Below, in pieces: positions 31,766 through 36,546 of a DNA stretch of 64,000 bases. The notes below the pieces were generated by a model. That model was not told the origin of the DNA. It worked only from the letters and a program-made list of their open reading frames with translations, and did no database searches. Made by a program: the position numbers and the translations under genes. Each line of letters opens with the position of its first letter. The stretch's first letter is position 1. The stretch comes from Phage NC-G: the sequence record MK310184; one strand, given 5' to 3'.

Positions 31766-33291
31766 TGTCAACAAACACACTAAAACACATTAGTGATAAA
31801 TCGGAATTCAAATCATTCGACCCTACTGGGTCGAATTTCCCGCCTGATATTACTAATGTTCAAGAAGCATTGGCGGCTATTTCATTAATCGGTGTCACAG
31901 GTAATGTTCCTTCAGCCACAGAAACATCCCAAGGTATTATTCGTCTTGCCACAACACAAGAAGTAATGGATGGGTTGGATGCTTATAGTGCAGTGACTCC
32001 GGCAACTTTAAAAGCACGTTTAGATATTCCTACTCAGGCAACAGAAACTTATGTAGGTATTACCCGTTATGCTACTAACGCTGAAGCTATAGCAGGCACA
32101 GAGCCCCAGGCTGCAATCGTAGCAACCTCTTTGAAAGCGGTAATGGATTATACATTTGAGAACCGTTTATCAACAGAGAACGCCACAGGCGTTATCAAGA
32201 TTTCAACTACACCTGCTGCATTAGCTGGTACCGATGATACCACAGCAATGACCCCACTTAAAGTATCTCAAGCAATTGGTGCGGCCACAGCAGCGTTACC
32301 GGTTTATTCTACGGCAACGACAACAAATGAAGGTTTAGTTCGTTTAGCGACTAATGCTGAAGTTGGTAATGGAAATCTTTCTGTAGGTATCGCTATTTCT
32401 CCTGCAGGGCTGGCAACTTTAACTTCCACCGAATCAAGAAGTGGTATTATTAAACTCGCAGGTTGGGATATGGTATCTAATGGTACTGACCACACTGCCG
32501 CTGTTACTCCGGCCTCTTTGCTAGCTCGTACAGGTAATACAGGACGAATTGGCTTAGTGCGTTTAACTACTACAGTAGGTCAAGGCGATGGTAATACGGC
32601 GCTGGCTTATAATGCTAACGTTATTTCTACTTCAGGCGGTGAAATATGGGGTACTTTAAACGTTAATGGTGCATTACGTCGTAATGGTGTTGATGTTGTT
32701 ACCCACGACCAATTATCAGATAGCGTTCCGGTAGGTACTATTTGTATGTGGGGCGGCCATGAAGGTAATATCCCTGGCAAATGGCGGGCTTGTGTAGGCG
32801 GAACTTATACTGGTGGTGCATATTTAAATGCTGTTGGTGGACGTTGGGGATGGTGGGGTGCTATTCCAGATTTCCGTGGATTATATCCTCGCGGTGCTAA
32901 CATGGTTGGTGGATATTCTGAAGGTGAAGTTAACCCACATATTGCCGGTAACCGAGGAGAAGACGGTAAAGGTAAAGCCCGTTTAGGTAACGGTGTAGGT
33001 TCGTTCCCACAATCTTCTGTTCAAGCCCAAGCATTACGTTATCATAAACATGCCGGTGGTTTTGGTGAACATGATAACTATGGCGCTTTTGGTAACACCG
33101 CTAACTCTGGATATGTCGGTACTCGTAAAGGACTTGACTGGGATAACCGTAGTTATTATACTAACGAAGGTTTTGAGACCACTGAACCTTGGAACCGTGA
33201 CGGCCATACCACACTGAATAGTGAAGGACTTATTGCAAATGAAACACGTCCTTGGACAATGTCCGTTCTTTTTATTATTAAAGTAGAATAA
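31765..33291 (+). CDS. 12: Short tail fibre protein gp12
   Basis: 508 aa at the T4 gene 12 position; Ala/Thr-rich repetitive N-terminal region. Confidence 0.9.
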   Translation: MSTNTLKHISDKSEFKSFDPTGSNFPPDITNVQEALAAISLIGVTGNVPSATETSQGIIRLATTQEVMDGLDAYSAVTPATLKARLDIPTQATETYVGITRYATNAEAIAGTEPQAAIVATSLKAVMDYTFENRLSTENATGVIKISTTPAALAGTDDTTAMTPLKVSQAIGAATAALPVYSTATTTNEGLVRLATNAEVGNGNLSVGIAISPAGLATLTSTESRSGIIKLAGWDMVSNGTDHTAAVTPASLLARTGNTGRIGLVRLTTTVGQGDGNTALAYNANVISTSGGEIWGTLNVNGALRRNGVDVVTHDQLSDSVPVGTICMWGGHEGNIPGKWRACVGGTYTGGAYLNAVGGRWGWWGAIPDFRGLYPRGANMVGGYSEGEVNPHIAGNRGEDGKGKARLGNGVGSFPQSSVQAQALRYHKHAGGFGEHDNYGAFGNTANSGYVGTRKGLDWDNRSYYTNEGFETTEPWNRDGHTTLNSEGLIANETRPWTMSVLFIIKVE

Positions 33292-33300
33292 GGGTAAAAA

Positions 33301-35556
33301 ATGATTAACAAATTGGAACTTAGTGAGTTACCATTTGTTGACGGCGTACCTGATGCTCCTCAAAAGCGTATCCAATGGATACGCGAGGGTGATTGTATGT
33401 CTGCAGCAAAAACAAAATACGGCAATGAAGGTAATTTGAACGCTGCTGCTTTAGGAGTTCAGAAAAACGTAGAAGCTCTTGATGCCAACGATTTAAAAAC
33501 TGCTGATAAAGTTAATGAGCTTATAGAAAACGTTAATAATATCAATGACGCTTTAGAAATGTCAACAGATATTTCTATCATTCAACAAATAGAGAAAAAC
33601 CGTGTTGATATTGTAGACCTTAAAAAAGTCACCGAAGATACAACAGAAAAATTGGACACCTTAACAACCAATTTTGATTTCTTGCGTGAAGATGTTGGAT
33701 ATCATGACCCTTTACAAGACGGCCCATATTTAACTGTACGTGAAAATATTGTTCTTCTTAAAAATGAAATTGGTCACTATGAGAACCAGGATATAAACGG
33801 TAATCCTTTACCTCCGGGTGAAACTAGTGAAGCCACTGGTATAAAACGCCGCATCATGGATAATACCACTGAATTGGTGGACCATCGTCTTCGTATTGAT
33901 ACCCTTGAAAGAAACTATGAAGATTCTGATGTTGGGCAATTAGGTATTAAACTAAATGAAATTCGTGCCGAATTAGGACCACATTCTGATACGGTAGGTA
34001 AACAACCTGCATATACCCGAATTTCAGTATTAGAAACGGCTGCAGTTAATTTTAATACGGCTATTGACGAAATTAAGGATAATATTGATTTCTCTGGTAT
34101 GCCTATAAAGGACCGAGTAACTACTTTAGAAAGCAAAACCCTTACCTTAGAAAATTCAGTTAACGTTGATTTAAAACCTAGAGTAACTTCTATAGAAACT
34201 CAAATCGGTTCTGAGTCTGCACCAGCATCTATTAATGGTCGTTTAAGCGGGCTTCGTACTGATGTAAATGATTTAAAAACCGTTGTTGGTAATAGTTCTA
34301 GTGAAGGGCTTCGTTTCCAGGTTTCCGATATTAATCGACGCCTTGGTAGTGAAGTGTCTCCTGCTGCCGGCACGATTAATAAGCGTTTGAATGATGTTAT
34401 TATTCAAGCAAACCAATCCACCTCGTCCATCCAGGATATTCAGGTAGAAATTGGTAACAACCAATCCGGTATAAAAGGTACTTTGCTTAAGCTCACAAAT
34501 AAGGTTGACGGGACGAACCCTAACGGAGCTACTGTAGAAGAACGTGGTCTTATTAATGCGGTTACTTCTTTAGAAACCCAGATGCAAGGTAAATTAGGTG
34601 ACGCACCTTCTGATGGTAAACTCTATGCACGTCGAAATGCGGCATGGGCTGAAGTTGTTAATAATTCCACAGAAATAGAAACTGTTAAAGCCGATTTGGT
34701 TGTTACCAATGGTAAAGTGACCGCTTTAACTTCCAGAGTAGATGATAATGATACTTCTATTTCATCTCTTAATACTCACACCACTGCTCTAAATACTTCG
34801 GTTGGTGAGATTAAAGCCGATATAGTTACTATAAAGGCTAAAGATGTTGAACAGGACGGTCGTTTAACTTCTTTGGAAGAGGCTGATGTTGCTATTAACG
34901 GTAAAATTGCTGCTCTCGAAACTAAGACAGATACCACTGATGATGATGTCACAGCACTGGCTTTAGACGTTTCTTCTTTAGAGAACCAATTGACTCCTAT
35001 AAAAGCCGATATTACCAAAAACAAAGGTGATATTGTTGCCTTAACTGGTCGGGTGGCTTCTACTGAAGGTGAAATTACCGCAATTAAAGTTGATACAGCC
35101 AAAATTGCTCCTTTAACAACTAGAGTTACTACAGCAGAAGGTAAAATCACTACTTTAGAAACAGGGCTTGCCGCTGTTAAAGTCGAATCTGATAAGGTAG
35201 CAGGTATTAATACCCGCCTTGGCACTGCAGAAGATGACATCGGAACACTTGAAACGGGTTTAGCTGCTGTTAAAGTCGAATCCGATAAGGTAGCAGGTAT
35301 TAATACCCGTTTAGGTACGGTCGAAGGTAAAGTTGGTACTCTTGAAACAGGTTTGGCTGCTGTTAAAGTTGAATCTGATAAAGTTGCTGACTTAGGAACC
35401 CGTTTAACCGCCGCCGAAGGTAAAATTACAGCCTTAGAAACAGAATTATCTAAACGTCCACCGGTGGCTCCTGCCGCAGACGGACTTCCGTATGTTCTGG
35501 TTGATAATGCATGGGTATTATTATCTGATTTTGTGACTTTAAACTCAGCACCATAA
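33301..35556 (+). CDS. wac: Fibritin (whisker/collar protein), expanded to 751 aa
   Basis: Long coiled-coil protein with foldon-like C-terminus DGLPYVLVDNAWVLLSDF; T4 fibritin is under 500 aa. Confidence 0.85.
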   Translation: MINKLELSELPFVDGVPDAPQKRIQWIREGDCMSAAKTKYGNEGNLNAAALGVQKNVEALDANDLKTADKVNELIENVNNINDALEMSTDISIIQQIEKNRVDIVDLKKVTEDTTEKLDTLTTNFDFLREDVGYHDPLQDGPYLTVRENIVLLKNEIGHYENQDINGNPLPPGETSEATGIKRRIMDNTTELVDHRLRIDTLERNYEDSDVGQLGIKLNEIRAELGPHSDTVGKQPAYTRISVLETAAVNFNTAIDEIKDNIDFSGMPIKDRVTTLESKTLTLENSVNVDLKPRVTSIETQIGSESAPASINGRLSGLRTDVNDLKTVVGNSSSEGLRFQVSDINRRLGSEVSPAAGTINKRLNDVIIQANQSTSSIQDIQVEIGNNQSGIKGTLLKLTNKVDGTNPNGATVEERGLINAVTSLETQMQGKLGDAPSDGKLYARRNAAWAEVVNNSTEIETVKADLVVTNGKVTALTSRVDDNDTSISSLNTHTTALNTSVGEIKADIVTIKAKDVEQDGRLTSLEEADVAINGKIAALETKTDTTDDDVTALALDVSSLENQLTPIKADITKNKGDIVALTGRVASTEGEITAIKVDTAKIAPLTTRVTTAEGKITTLETGLAAVKVESDKVAGINTRLGTAEDDIGTLETGLAAVKVESDKVAGINTRLGTVEGKVGTLETGLAAVKVESDKVADLGTRLTAAEGKITALETELSKRPPVAPAADGLPYVLVDNAWVLLSDFVTLNSAP
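35152..35430 (+). repeat. Three tandem 93-bp in-frame repeats inside wac
   Basis: Protein repeat TLETGLAAVKVESDKVAGINTRLGT... occurs three times in a row with near-identical DNA. Confidence 0.8.
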
Positions 35557-35581
35557 TAAAAGGGCTTCGGCCCTTTTTTGC

Positions 35582-35589
35582 TATAAATA
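35582..35589 (+). promoter_or_regulatory. T4 late-promoter motif TATAAATA upstream of gene 13
   Basis: Exact TATAAATA after the wac terminator hairpin GGGCttcgGCCC. Confidence 0.55.
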
Positions 35590-35610
35590 CGGTTATTAGA
35601 GGAATAAAAC

Positions 35611-36546
35611 ATGGCAAGTGAATCATATAACCCTAAGCAACTCAAGGACGCTATTCTGCGCCGCCTGGGTGCACCGATTACAAATATTGAAGTAACTACT
35701 GACCAAGTGTATGATTGTATCCAGAGGGCCTTAGAGCTCTACGGTGAATACCATTATAACGGGTATAACAAAGGTTATCAGGCTTTTTATATTGGCCATG
35801 ACGATGAAGAAAAATTCCGTAATGGTGTATTCGACCTTAAAGGACGTAATATATTTGCAGTAACACAAATTTTGAGAACTAACGTTGGTTCTTTAACATC
35901 TATGGACGGGCAAGCAACTTATCCGTGGTTTACAGATTTTGTACTAGGTTTGGCAGGTATTAATGGCGGTCTTGGGTCTTCATGTAACAGTTTTGGACCT
36001 AATGCCTTCGGCGCCGACCTTGGTTATTTTACACAATTAATGCAATATCGTTCTATGATGCAGGACCTTTTGGTTCCGCTGCCTGATTATTGGTATAATG
36101 ATGCCACTGAACAATTAAAGGTAATGGGCAACTTTGTTAAAGGCGACTTTATTGTAATTGAAGTTTATACCCGTTCATTTAATGGCGTTGATTCCATGGT
36201 TGGGAATACAGCAGGATATGGATACGCTTCTGGCGGCTGTGACGAAAATGAATGGAGCCCTGGGGCTATTTGGGACAATCCTGCACGTCGAATTTCCGGA
36301 ATGAGAGCTGGCGAAGACCTTGGACTACAAGATGGTGCTTATAATAACCGTTGGGTCAAAGATTACGCTACGGCATTAGTTAAAGAGGTCAATGGTAATA
36401 TTTTAGCCAAACACCAAGGTATGCAATTAGCAGGCGGGACCACTGTAGACGGCATTCGATTGATTGAAGAAGCTCGTTTAGAAAAAGAACGTCTTCGCGA
36501 AGAATTAGATTTGCTCGACCCACCAACACCTATTTTAATTGGATAA
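35611..36546 (+). CDS. 13: Neck protein gp13
   Basis: 311 aa at the T4 gene 13 position. Confidence 0.9.

Follow-up and report, generated by a model that had tools for sequence, protein, structure and literature searches.

A JS98-type fibritin gene of Phage NC-G with two foldon-like motifs and a spacer of probably old, reshuffled coiled-coil modules

The 64,000-nucleotide stretch of Phage NC-G DNA analysed here (the window; sequence record MK310184) encodes, in its ORF list, a 751 aa protein on the + strand at 33301..35556, which is very probably the JS98-type fibritin of a JS98-like T4-type coliphage (Dhakavirus), with spacer repeats that are old paralogues and a length that changes by the gain and loss of modules and by recombination. 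Judged from its sequence, wac appears to be an ordinary gene that had been annotated before and not the site of a freshly expanding repeat, because the three repeats of 31 residues in it are of old origin and their DNA has diverged considerably. The gene, its parts and the elements at its two ends are the following.

33290..33295, + strand: Shine-Dalgarno-like AAGGGT, 5 nt 5' of the wac ATG, read from the sequence and putative in function
33301..35556, + strand: wac, fibritin (neck whisker/collar protein) of the JS98 type, 751 aa plus stop, assigned by homology, Pfam, PHROG and identity to JS98
33301..33450, + strand: N-terminal domain, aa ~1-50, homologous to the T4 neck-attachment domain
33451..34584, + strand: segmented coiled-coil shaft, aa 51-428, colinear with the T4 fibritin shaft
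34588..34659, + strand: internal foldon-like motif, aa 430-453, GKLGDAPSDGKLYARRNAAWAEVV, from Pfam, conservation and an AF2 hairpin
34663..35451, + strand: variable-length spacer between the foldon motifs, aa 455-717, with coiled-coil heptads; 264 aa by the boundaries of the length comparison
35059..35151, + strand: degenerate upstream copy of the repeat unit, aa 587-617, STEGEITAIKVDTAKIAPLTTRVTTAEGKIT; profile score 65.3, whereas 500 shuffles reached 31.3 at most
35152..35244, + strand: repeat unit 1, aa 618-648, TLETGLAAVKVESDKVAGINTRLGTAEDDIG; 96.8% nt identity to the JS10 unit at aa 618-648 and 76.3% to unit 2
35245..35337, + strand: repeat unit 2, aa 649-679, TLETGLAAVKVESDKVAGINTRLGTVEGKVG; 97.8% nt identity to the JS10 unit at aa 697-727
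35338..35430, + strand: repeat unit 3, aa 680-710, TLETGLAAVKVESDKVADLGTRLTAAEGKIT; nt identity 66.7% to unit 1 and 73.1% to unit 2
35455..35535, + strand: terminal foldon-like motif, aa 719-745, RPPVAPAADGLPYVLVDNAWVLLSDFV, from identities to the T4 foldon and conservation
35558..35577, + strand: short hairpin AAAAGGGC-UUCG-GCCCUUUU directly 3' of the wac stop; fold -11.1 kcal/mol, z = -1.42

The identity of the gene, which the earlier note had read as a wac much longer than that of T4, is borne out by several lines of homology. Residues 4-429 of T4 fibritin, the chains of which are 486-487 aa long in the PDB, correspond to aa 6-428 in a single continuous alignment (E 4.5e-73), and the product matches the Pfam family Fibritin_C (PF07921; 100 bits, cutoff 21) and PHROG 1056, ‘fibritin neck whisker’ (E 5e-195). 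The wac of JS98 is of equal length and 97.6% identical at the nucleotide level (55 mismatches), with the flanking 24 kb 97.9% identical between the two phages, and all 751 aa are those of the deposited QBP35503.1, "neck whiskers protein [Phage NC-G]". The locus follows the order 12-wac-13-14-15: the ORF 5' of wac carries the Pfam domains of gp12 (short tail fibre), the ORFs 3' of it match JS98 gp13 (neck protein) and onward, and no extra ORF stands between wac and gene 13 in the window ORF list. The AAGGGT ahead of wac overlaps the stop codon of gene 12 (TAA, 33289-33291). The hairpin beyond the wac stop may act as a weak terminator or as an RNA-stabilising element; because the intrinsic-terminator scan did not flag it and its z value is only -1.42, a terminator is given here as a possibility. 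An antisense ORF of 289 aa that runs across the repeats (34776..35645) had no PHROG match and was rejected as a gene. Open antisense frames of 140-422 aa occur in every genome and grow with spacer length, and are therefore regarded as a by-product of composition.

The architecture of the protein can be followed from the neck outwards. Structures of N-terminal fragments of T4 fibritin (1ox3, 2ibl) match aa 6-68 (E 1.4e-13); in T4 this domain attaches the fibre to the neck (PMC3797505) and it would fix the fibre there in NC-G as well. The T4-colinear segmented coiled-coil shaft, in a product with a heptad pattern and register shifts, runs to aa 428. A beta-hairpin motif that is internal and foldon-like (aa 430-453) comes next, then a coiled-coil spacer that differs in length between phages (aa 455-717) and, at the C-terminal end, a second foldon-like motif (aa 719-745). 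From its homology to T4 fibritin, the product would assemble into parallel trimers, with nucleation at the foldon motifs, and, to judge from T4 and JS98, these trimers would build a collar and six whiskers that would help the long tail fibres to attach and keep them retracted. T4 fibritin itself forms the collar and whiskers and assists long tail fibre attachment and retraction (PMC3797505).

The internal motif was recognised with aa 421-470 alone, which match positions 52-92/93 of Fibritin_C at 29.7 bits (cutoff 21), and its pattern D-A-P-x-D-x-K-x-Y-x-R-x4-W-x-E is invariant in nine divergent fibritins. It shares 8 of 27 residues with the T4 foldon, including A6, P7, D9, G10, Y13, R15 and W20, and in the AF2 model, a monomer with a mean pLDDT of 68 that served for secondary structure only, aa 442-451 form a predicted beta-hairpin with helices on either side (pLDDT about 70). 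The motif also weakly matches PDB 8rk3, a DUF2793 protein with a structure from the phage JBD30 paper (E 0.065). The terminal motif, which the earlier note had called a foldon-like C-terminus with good reason, agrees without gaps with the T4 foldon at 11 of 27 positions (D-G, Y, V, D, W-V-L-L-S and F among them), gives a weak HMMER alignment to the foldon of the T4 structures 1aa0 and 2bsg, and is nearly invariant across 15 Dhakavirus and three Gaprivervirus fibritins; scanned alone it has no Pfam match. Glu5 and Arg15 of the T4 foldon, which form its salt bridge, are replaced by Val and Leu in the terminal motif. Both motifs, which in the window protein sit at aa 438 and 727, lie at equivalent positions in all 15 Dhakavirus genes. 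The viral-contig scan yielded one natural single hybrid foldon (L027), which, going by its sequence, would represent a naturally occurring conversion between forms with two foldons and with one. The internal motif and the degenerate fourth unit at aa 587-617 had both been overlooked in the first reading of the DNA.

Between the motifs, the heptad register is constant over ~aa 449-592 and then shifts by +3 with each 31-aa unit, each of which would consist of four heptads plus three residues. The matches of the spacer are generic coiled coils only, such as P22 gp26 and reovirus sigma-1. An omega of ~0.1 (aa 455-617) argues that the spacer is translated and constrained. The three units account for only 93 of the ~264 residues in excess of T4 fibritin, and the extra length appears to consist mainly of the JS98-type spacer and the second foldon, rather than of the three repeats.

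Three tandem, in-frame units of 93 nt (31 aa) occupy exactly 35152..35430, and to this extent the earlier description of ‘three perfect 93-bp in-frame repeats’ stands. The best 93-nt window at an offset of 93 has 76 of 93 matches. In codon-shuffled versions of wac the same offset averaged 39.9 and reached 50 at most, and no in-frame offset exceeded 52, which places the tandem units far beyond chance. The units are not perfect, nor near-identical in DNA as had been supposed: the pairs are 76.3/66.7/73.1% identical in nucleotides, the longest exact run at an offset of 93 is 26 nt and common to units 1 and 2, and TRF reports 75-82% matches. As proteins they are in tandem and of 31 aa each, with identities of 87/74/74% that fall short of near-identity, and the only stretch identical in all three is the first 17 residues (TLETGLAAVKVESDKVA), for which the DNA differs at 8-10 positions per 51 nt. 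Repeats that are called perfect on inspection by eye may thus owe this to protein similarity, behind which about 25-30% divergence in DNA is hidden. Between the units dS is 0.88-1.28 (a rough value, each unit having 31 codons and being near saturation) and dN 0.13-0.28, against a dS of 0.054 between the window and JS98 orthologues. Of the four units arrayed in the distal spacer these three would be the best preserved, and they would be old paralogues in which purifying selection keeps the protein similar and synonymous sites would have diverged almost to saturation.

Across 15 Dhakavirus genomes, wac encodes 514-827 aa, the alleles differing by modules of 14, 17, 31 or 48 aa, with spacers of 27, 42, 202, 233, 247, 250, 264, 281, 312 and 340 aa. 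Whisker length polymorphism between related phages, as the earlier note had predicted, is thus found here and is also described in PMC3797505. The JS98-type fibritin is present in Gaprivervirus and Kanagawavirus as well. A large protein search with aa 425-751 returned 13 proteins, was swamped by generic coiled-coil words, missed JS98 and gave no length census, while the viral-contig scan mostly recovered the same isolate genomes again and amounts to no real population sample. The window allele is JS98-like at nt 1-1699 and its repeat region is closer to JS10. Twenty of the 55 mismatches with JS98 wac sit in repeat unit 2, which is of a different type from unit 2 of JS98 and of the same type as the penultimate unit of JS10, UP19 and MX01, such that the two alleles are of equal length and differ in module content. 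Compared with UP19, the window shaft has a dS of 0.047 and the window spacer one of 0.98, and IME08 has the reverse of this pattern. Length differences would come from the gain or loss of whole modules (14, 17, 31 or 48 aa), spacer segments would also pass between lineages by homologous recombination, and length change would not stem from the ongoing slippage of identical repeats. Whisker length within the group, which spans 514-827 aa in one genus, would on this evidence change through the reshuffling of old modules and recombination.

Among the other explanations, the one that survives best, though it appears unlikely, is that the spacer and terminal foldon are an accessory, length-tunable module (such as an adhesin or a sensor of the environment, or else a periodic surface for docking that is based on the 17-aa core) and that the internal foldon docks the long tail fibres. 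The internal foldon does lie near the position of the T4 foldon on the shaft and is unchanged from genus to genus, the distal part ranges between 27 and 340 aa in length and so places the terminal foldon at no fixed distance from the neck, the 17-aa core is kept in three units despite its differences in DNA, and PMC3797505 calls it unclear whether fibritin variants share the functions of that of T4. However, the spacer bears no sequence or domain sign of a binding function, with matches that are all to generic coiled coils, structure alone predicts purifying selection on a coiled-coil core, and the single hybrid foldon of L027 suggests that the two foldon motifs are interchangeable. In a fuller form of the idea, which is rather improbable, the distal half of fibritin would be a recombination-shuffled, length-tunable cassette under selection of its own, in which the invariant internal foldon folds the protein and docks the tail fibres at a T4-like distance from the neck and the spacer with the terminal foldon provides an adjustable ‘reach’ for sensing or adhesion. 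Were this the case, the reach would be about 4 to 50 nm (taking 0.15 nm per coiled-coil residue), and the equal-length JS98 and NC-G alleles with different modules, the identical 17-aa cores despite saturated synonymous sites and the exchange of spacers between lineages would all reflect selection on whisker length or on a repeated binding surface, and not neutral indel drift.

Very unlikely is the recent expansion that the earlier note had proposed, by slippage or unequal recombination of near-identical repeats, with a unit number that is unstable in the phage population. The units follow one another in tandem, in frame and with no difference in length, their number differs between related phages, and the 26-nt run in units 1 and 2 could support rare unequal recombination. 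Yet the units are only 67-76% identical in nucleotides, with a dS of about 1, and since they differ so substantially at the DNA level recent slippage is rejected. The comparison with wac in related phages also speaks against recent expansion: the units are 95-98% nt-identical to their positional counterparts in other phages and only 76% to their neighbour, JS98, independently sequenced, has a wac of the same length, and perfect repeats occur in none of the 15 relatives, as no exact in-frame repeat >41 nt is present in the 15 Dhakavirus wac genes.

That the long ORF is an artefact, through mis-assembly of the repeats or a spurious fusion of wac with a downstream frame, is extremely improbable, for while repeats are classic sites of assembly error and wac length varies among deposited genomes, the units can be assembled unambiguously because no exact run at the 93-nt offset exceeds 26 nt, the architecture with its conserved start, terminal foldon and stop recurs in 18 or more genomes that were sequenced independently and belong to three genera, the spacer has the omega of about 0.1 noted above, and biochemistry on JS98-type fibritin is cited in PMC3797505.

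In comparison with known systems, the spacer of the preferred reading, a JS98-type fibritin with old repeats, shows weak similarity to the P22 tail needle gp26 (4lin_A, E 2.3e-5) and reovirus sigma-1 (6gap_A, E 0.0095); because this similarity is generic to coiled coils and neither domains nor genomic context are shared, these are not homologues in a useful sense. The RB43-type fibritins have one or three Ig-like domains, and close relatives differ in the copies of C-terminal modules (PMC3797505), a variability in copy number that is shared with the protein described here, but their modules are Ig-like and not coiled-coil, and the C-terminal sequence is unrelated. In T4 fibritin (2bsg, 3j2o, 1aa0, 1avy, 1ox3) the N-terminal domain and the shaft are homologous to those of the window protein, the C-terminus is likewise a foldon-type motif, and the gene has the same place between genes 12 and 13. 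Its 487 aa end in a single terminal foldon, whereas in the window the foldon that follows the shaft is internal and is succeeded by ~265 aa of coiled coil and a second foldon, and T4 has about 27 more coiled-coil residues ahead of its foldon than the window has ahead of the internal one. A foldon-like motif with further coiled coil behind it is perhaps modestly interesting to engineers who use foldon trimerisation tags. The closest likeness is to the JS98-type fibritins, in which two foldon motifs like that of T4 are separated by a coiled-coil spacer, the length of which differs between phages (Letarov & Krisch 2013, PMC3797505); the window protein shares both traits and has no essential difference from them. 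By the account of Latypov et al. 2007 given in PMC3797505, the fibritin of JS98/JS98C3 trimerises by its foldons alone, without a separate chaperone. JS98 Wac (AAU29287.1 / YP_001595288.1) shares length, position and architecture with the window wac, and NC-G QBP35503.1 is the same protein. Descriptions from 2007 to 2013 had already covered wac with its unusual length, its pair of foldon motifs and its variable spacer, and the deposited protein is correctly named. A literature search returned no publications on phage NC-G. To the description of the JS98 type, the present sequence comparison adds how large the modules are (14, 17, 31 and 48 aa), how old the repeats are, the pattern of recombination and the occurrence in Gaprivervirus and Kanagawavirus.

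The wac ORF encodes a 751-aa fibritin, as the earlier note had claimed, an identity on which several lines of evidence agree. Residues 6-428 are colinear with T4 fibritin 4-429 (E 4.5e-73), the N-terminal 60 residues match T4 fibritin N-terminal fragment structures, and the product matches Pfam Fibritin_C (100 bits; cutoff 21) and PHROG 1056 'fibritin neck whisker' (E 5e-195). Flanked by a gp12-type short tail fibre gene on one side and homologues of gp13/14/15 on the other, it shares 97.6% DNA identity over its full length with the wac of JS98, an Escherichia phage of the genus Dhakavirus, and the surrounding 24-kb stretch is 97.9% identical to JS98. The exact protein is already deposited ('neck whiskers protein [Phage NC-G]', NCBI QBP35503.1); the feature is real, previously known and correctly annotated. 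The elements of the locus are:

33301..35556 (+), wac, fibritin
aa 430-453, internal foldon-like motif, GKLGDAPSDGKLYARRNAAWAEVV
aa 587-617, fourth, degenerate 31-aa unit directly upstream of unit 1
35152..35244 (+), unit 1
35245..35337 (+), unit 2
35338..35430 (+), unit 3
aa 719-745, terminal foldon-like motif, RPPVAPAADGLPYVLVDNAWVLLSDFV
34776-35645 (-), antisense ORF of 289 aa, overlapping both the repeat region and the 5' end of gene 13

The Fibritin_C match falls mid-protein (aa 371-454), and the product possesses two foldon-like motifs. Scanned alone, the internal motif still clears the Pfam threshold at 29.7 bits. Nine fibritins with only ~40% identity elsewhere all retain its residues D-A-P-x-D-x-K-x-Y-x-R-x4-W-x-E, and in an AlphaFold monomer model (mean pLDDT 68) two helices flank a beta-hairpin at aa 442-451. 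The foldon-like C-terminus noticed earlier is borne out by the terminal motif, which has 11 of 27 residues in common with the T4 foldon and no Pfam match when scanned alone. The two motifs are separated by a coiled-coil spacer of ~264 aa, in which the heptad register is constant over ~aa 449-592; thereafter each 31-aa unit moves it by +3, since 31 = 4 x 7 + 3. Spacer and second foldon account for most of the length by which the protein exceeds T4 fibritin.

A 93-nt period at ~35131-35430 was detected by both Tandem Repeats Finder and a repeat finder, and the register 35152..35430 gives three tandem in-frame units, as had been proposed. This periodicity is far above chance: at offset 93 the top-scoring 93-nt window has 76/93 matches, whereas codon-shuffled wac averages 39.9 and reaches at most 50 there, or 52 when every in-frame offset is considered. 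The description of the repeats as perfect or near-identical fails at the DNA level, where the pairwise identities are 76.3, 66.7, and 73.1% and exact runs at offset 93 reach at most 26 nt; substantial DNA divergence of the units is the outcome that the earlier note had itself named as refuting its claim. Protein identities between pairs are 87, 74, and 74%; all three units share just their first 17 residues (TLETGLAAVKVESDKVA).

The recent expansion that perfect repeats would have implied, the claim that gave the feature its apparent interest, is wrong. Between the three units, dS is 0.88-1.28 and dN 0.13-0.28 (Nei-Gojobori), while orthologue dS over wac aa 1-430 is much below, or comparable to, these values:

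window vs JS98, 0.054
window vs the MX01/Bp7 clade, ~0.6
window vs IME08, C6, and 04086, 1.4-1.6

Each unit has 95-98% DNA identity to its positional equivalent in another phage and only 76% to its neighbour, and none of 15 Dhakavirus wac genes contains an exact in-frame direct repeat >41 nt. Based on the between-unit dS, the positional orthologues, and the lack of such exact repeats, the duplication is old; the likeness of the units is maintained by purifying selection on the protein.

The predicted length polymorphism of the whisker is present between phages, with products of 514-827 aa across 15 Dhakavirus genomes, and is already in the literature. All of the variation lies between the two foldons (spacers of 27, 42, 202, 233, 247, 250, 264, 281, 312 or 340 aa), with entire modules of 14, 17, 31 or 48 aa distinguishing the alleles. 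Although the window and JS98 both encode 751 aa, they have different module types as unit 2, which holds 20 of the 55 nucleotide differences between them and in the window is matched by the penultimate unit of JS10 (97.8%). Over wac nt 1-1699 the window is JS98-like (25 mismatches, compared to 97 to JS10), whereas across the repeats JS10 minus its 48-aa unit is the nearer match (14 mismatches, compared to 30 to JS98); the equal fibritin length in the window and JS98 was arrived at by different module content.

Relative to the window, UP19 has a shaft dS of 0.047 and a spacer dS of 0.98. The pattern is opposite in IME08, whose shaft is very divergent (69% nt) but whose C-terminal region is 87% identical. 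The shaft/spacer dS discordance in wac of UP19, VR5, and IME08 implies putative recombination breakpoints near the internal foldon. MN04 (locus L010), classified as 'Dhakavirus JS98', possesses a short 529-aa Bp7-like wac with only 87% nt identity to the window over aa 1-430, and here species-level lineages appear to have swapped the entire gene. The spacer is under constraint, based on an omega of ~0.1. Judged from these patterns of similarity, recombination between diverged modules and between lineages would be the best explanation.

An open antisense frame of 140-422 aa occurs in all relatives and scales with spacer length, and the 289-aa antisense ORF, which has no PHROG match, therefore seems to be a side effect of coiled-coil codon composition. 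At 35582-35589, 21 nt ahead of the start codon of gene 13 (ATG at 35611), is an exact T4 late-promoter consensus (TATAAATA); the window has 18 exact copies compared to ~8 expected, most on the + strand at 40 to 49 kb. The conserved MIDKLS start lies 69 nt inside the deposited IME08 wac CDS (L012:596-3064), which overlaps gene 12 and is probably mis-annotated at its start. Fibritins are labelled 'phospholipase' in ESCO10 and 'hypothetical protein' in LHE83, PSD2002, and CLB_P2. Gene 13 of vB_EcoM_005 (L009:3769-4734) is recorded as two CDSs (378 and 477 nt) where a single one of ~936 nt would be expected, which suggests a frameshift or sequencing error. In VR26, genes 13 and 14 are separated by a gene for a SegC-like homing endonuclease (L015:3741-4322), an insertion absent from the window, where gene 14 directly follows gene 13.

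By analogy with T4 (PMC3797505), the N-terminal domain would anchor fibritin trimers to the neck, the foldon motifs would nucleate and register a parallel three-stranded coiled coil, and the fibres would form the collar and whiskers, which may help the long tail fibres attach and keep them retracted in unfavourable conditions. Because the internal foldon lies near the shaft position of the T4 foldon and the distal part has a ~tenfold length range, the internal motif could be the functional equivalent of the T4 foldon and the distal part accessory, a reading of low probability.

The window wac is a 'JS98-type' fibritin of Letarov & Krisch 2013, who described two T4-like foldon motifs and a coiled-coil spacer whose length differs among JS98-like phages (PMC3797505). 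In a statement there that cites Latypov et al. 2007, trimer folding of JS98 fibritin is by the foldons alone (PMC3797505). Two-foldon fibritins also occur in Gaprivervirus (VR7, 528 aa; VR20, 525 aa; VR26, 722 aa) and in the Kanagawavirus CIP9, an Enterobacter phage (548 aa). A metagenomic Kanagawavirus-like contig (L027:3001-4365; IMGVR_UViG_3300045988_154884) encodes a 455-aa fibritin with one foldon that is 95.6% identical to CIP9 (loci L024/L018) over aa 1-430. This foldon is a hybrid, its 5' part matching the CIP9 internal motif and its 3' part the CIP9 terminal motif, joined at a GATGG common to both. The contig is a natural example of conversion between two-foldon and one-foldon fibritins, as in the deletion/duplication by which Letarov & Krisch proposed that the JS98 and T4 types are connected (PMC3797505).
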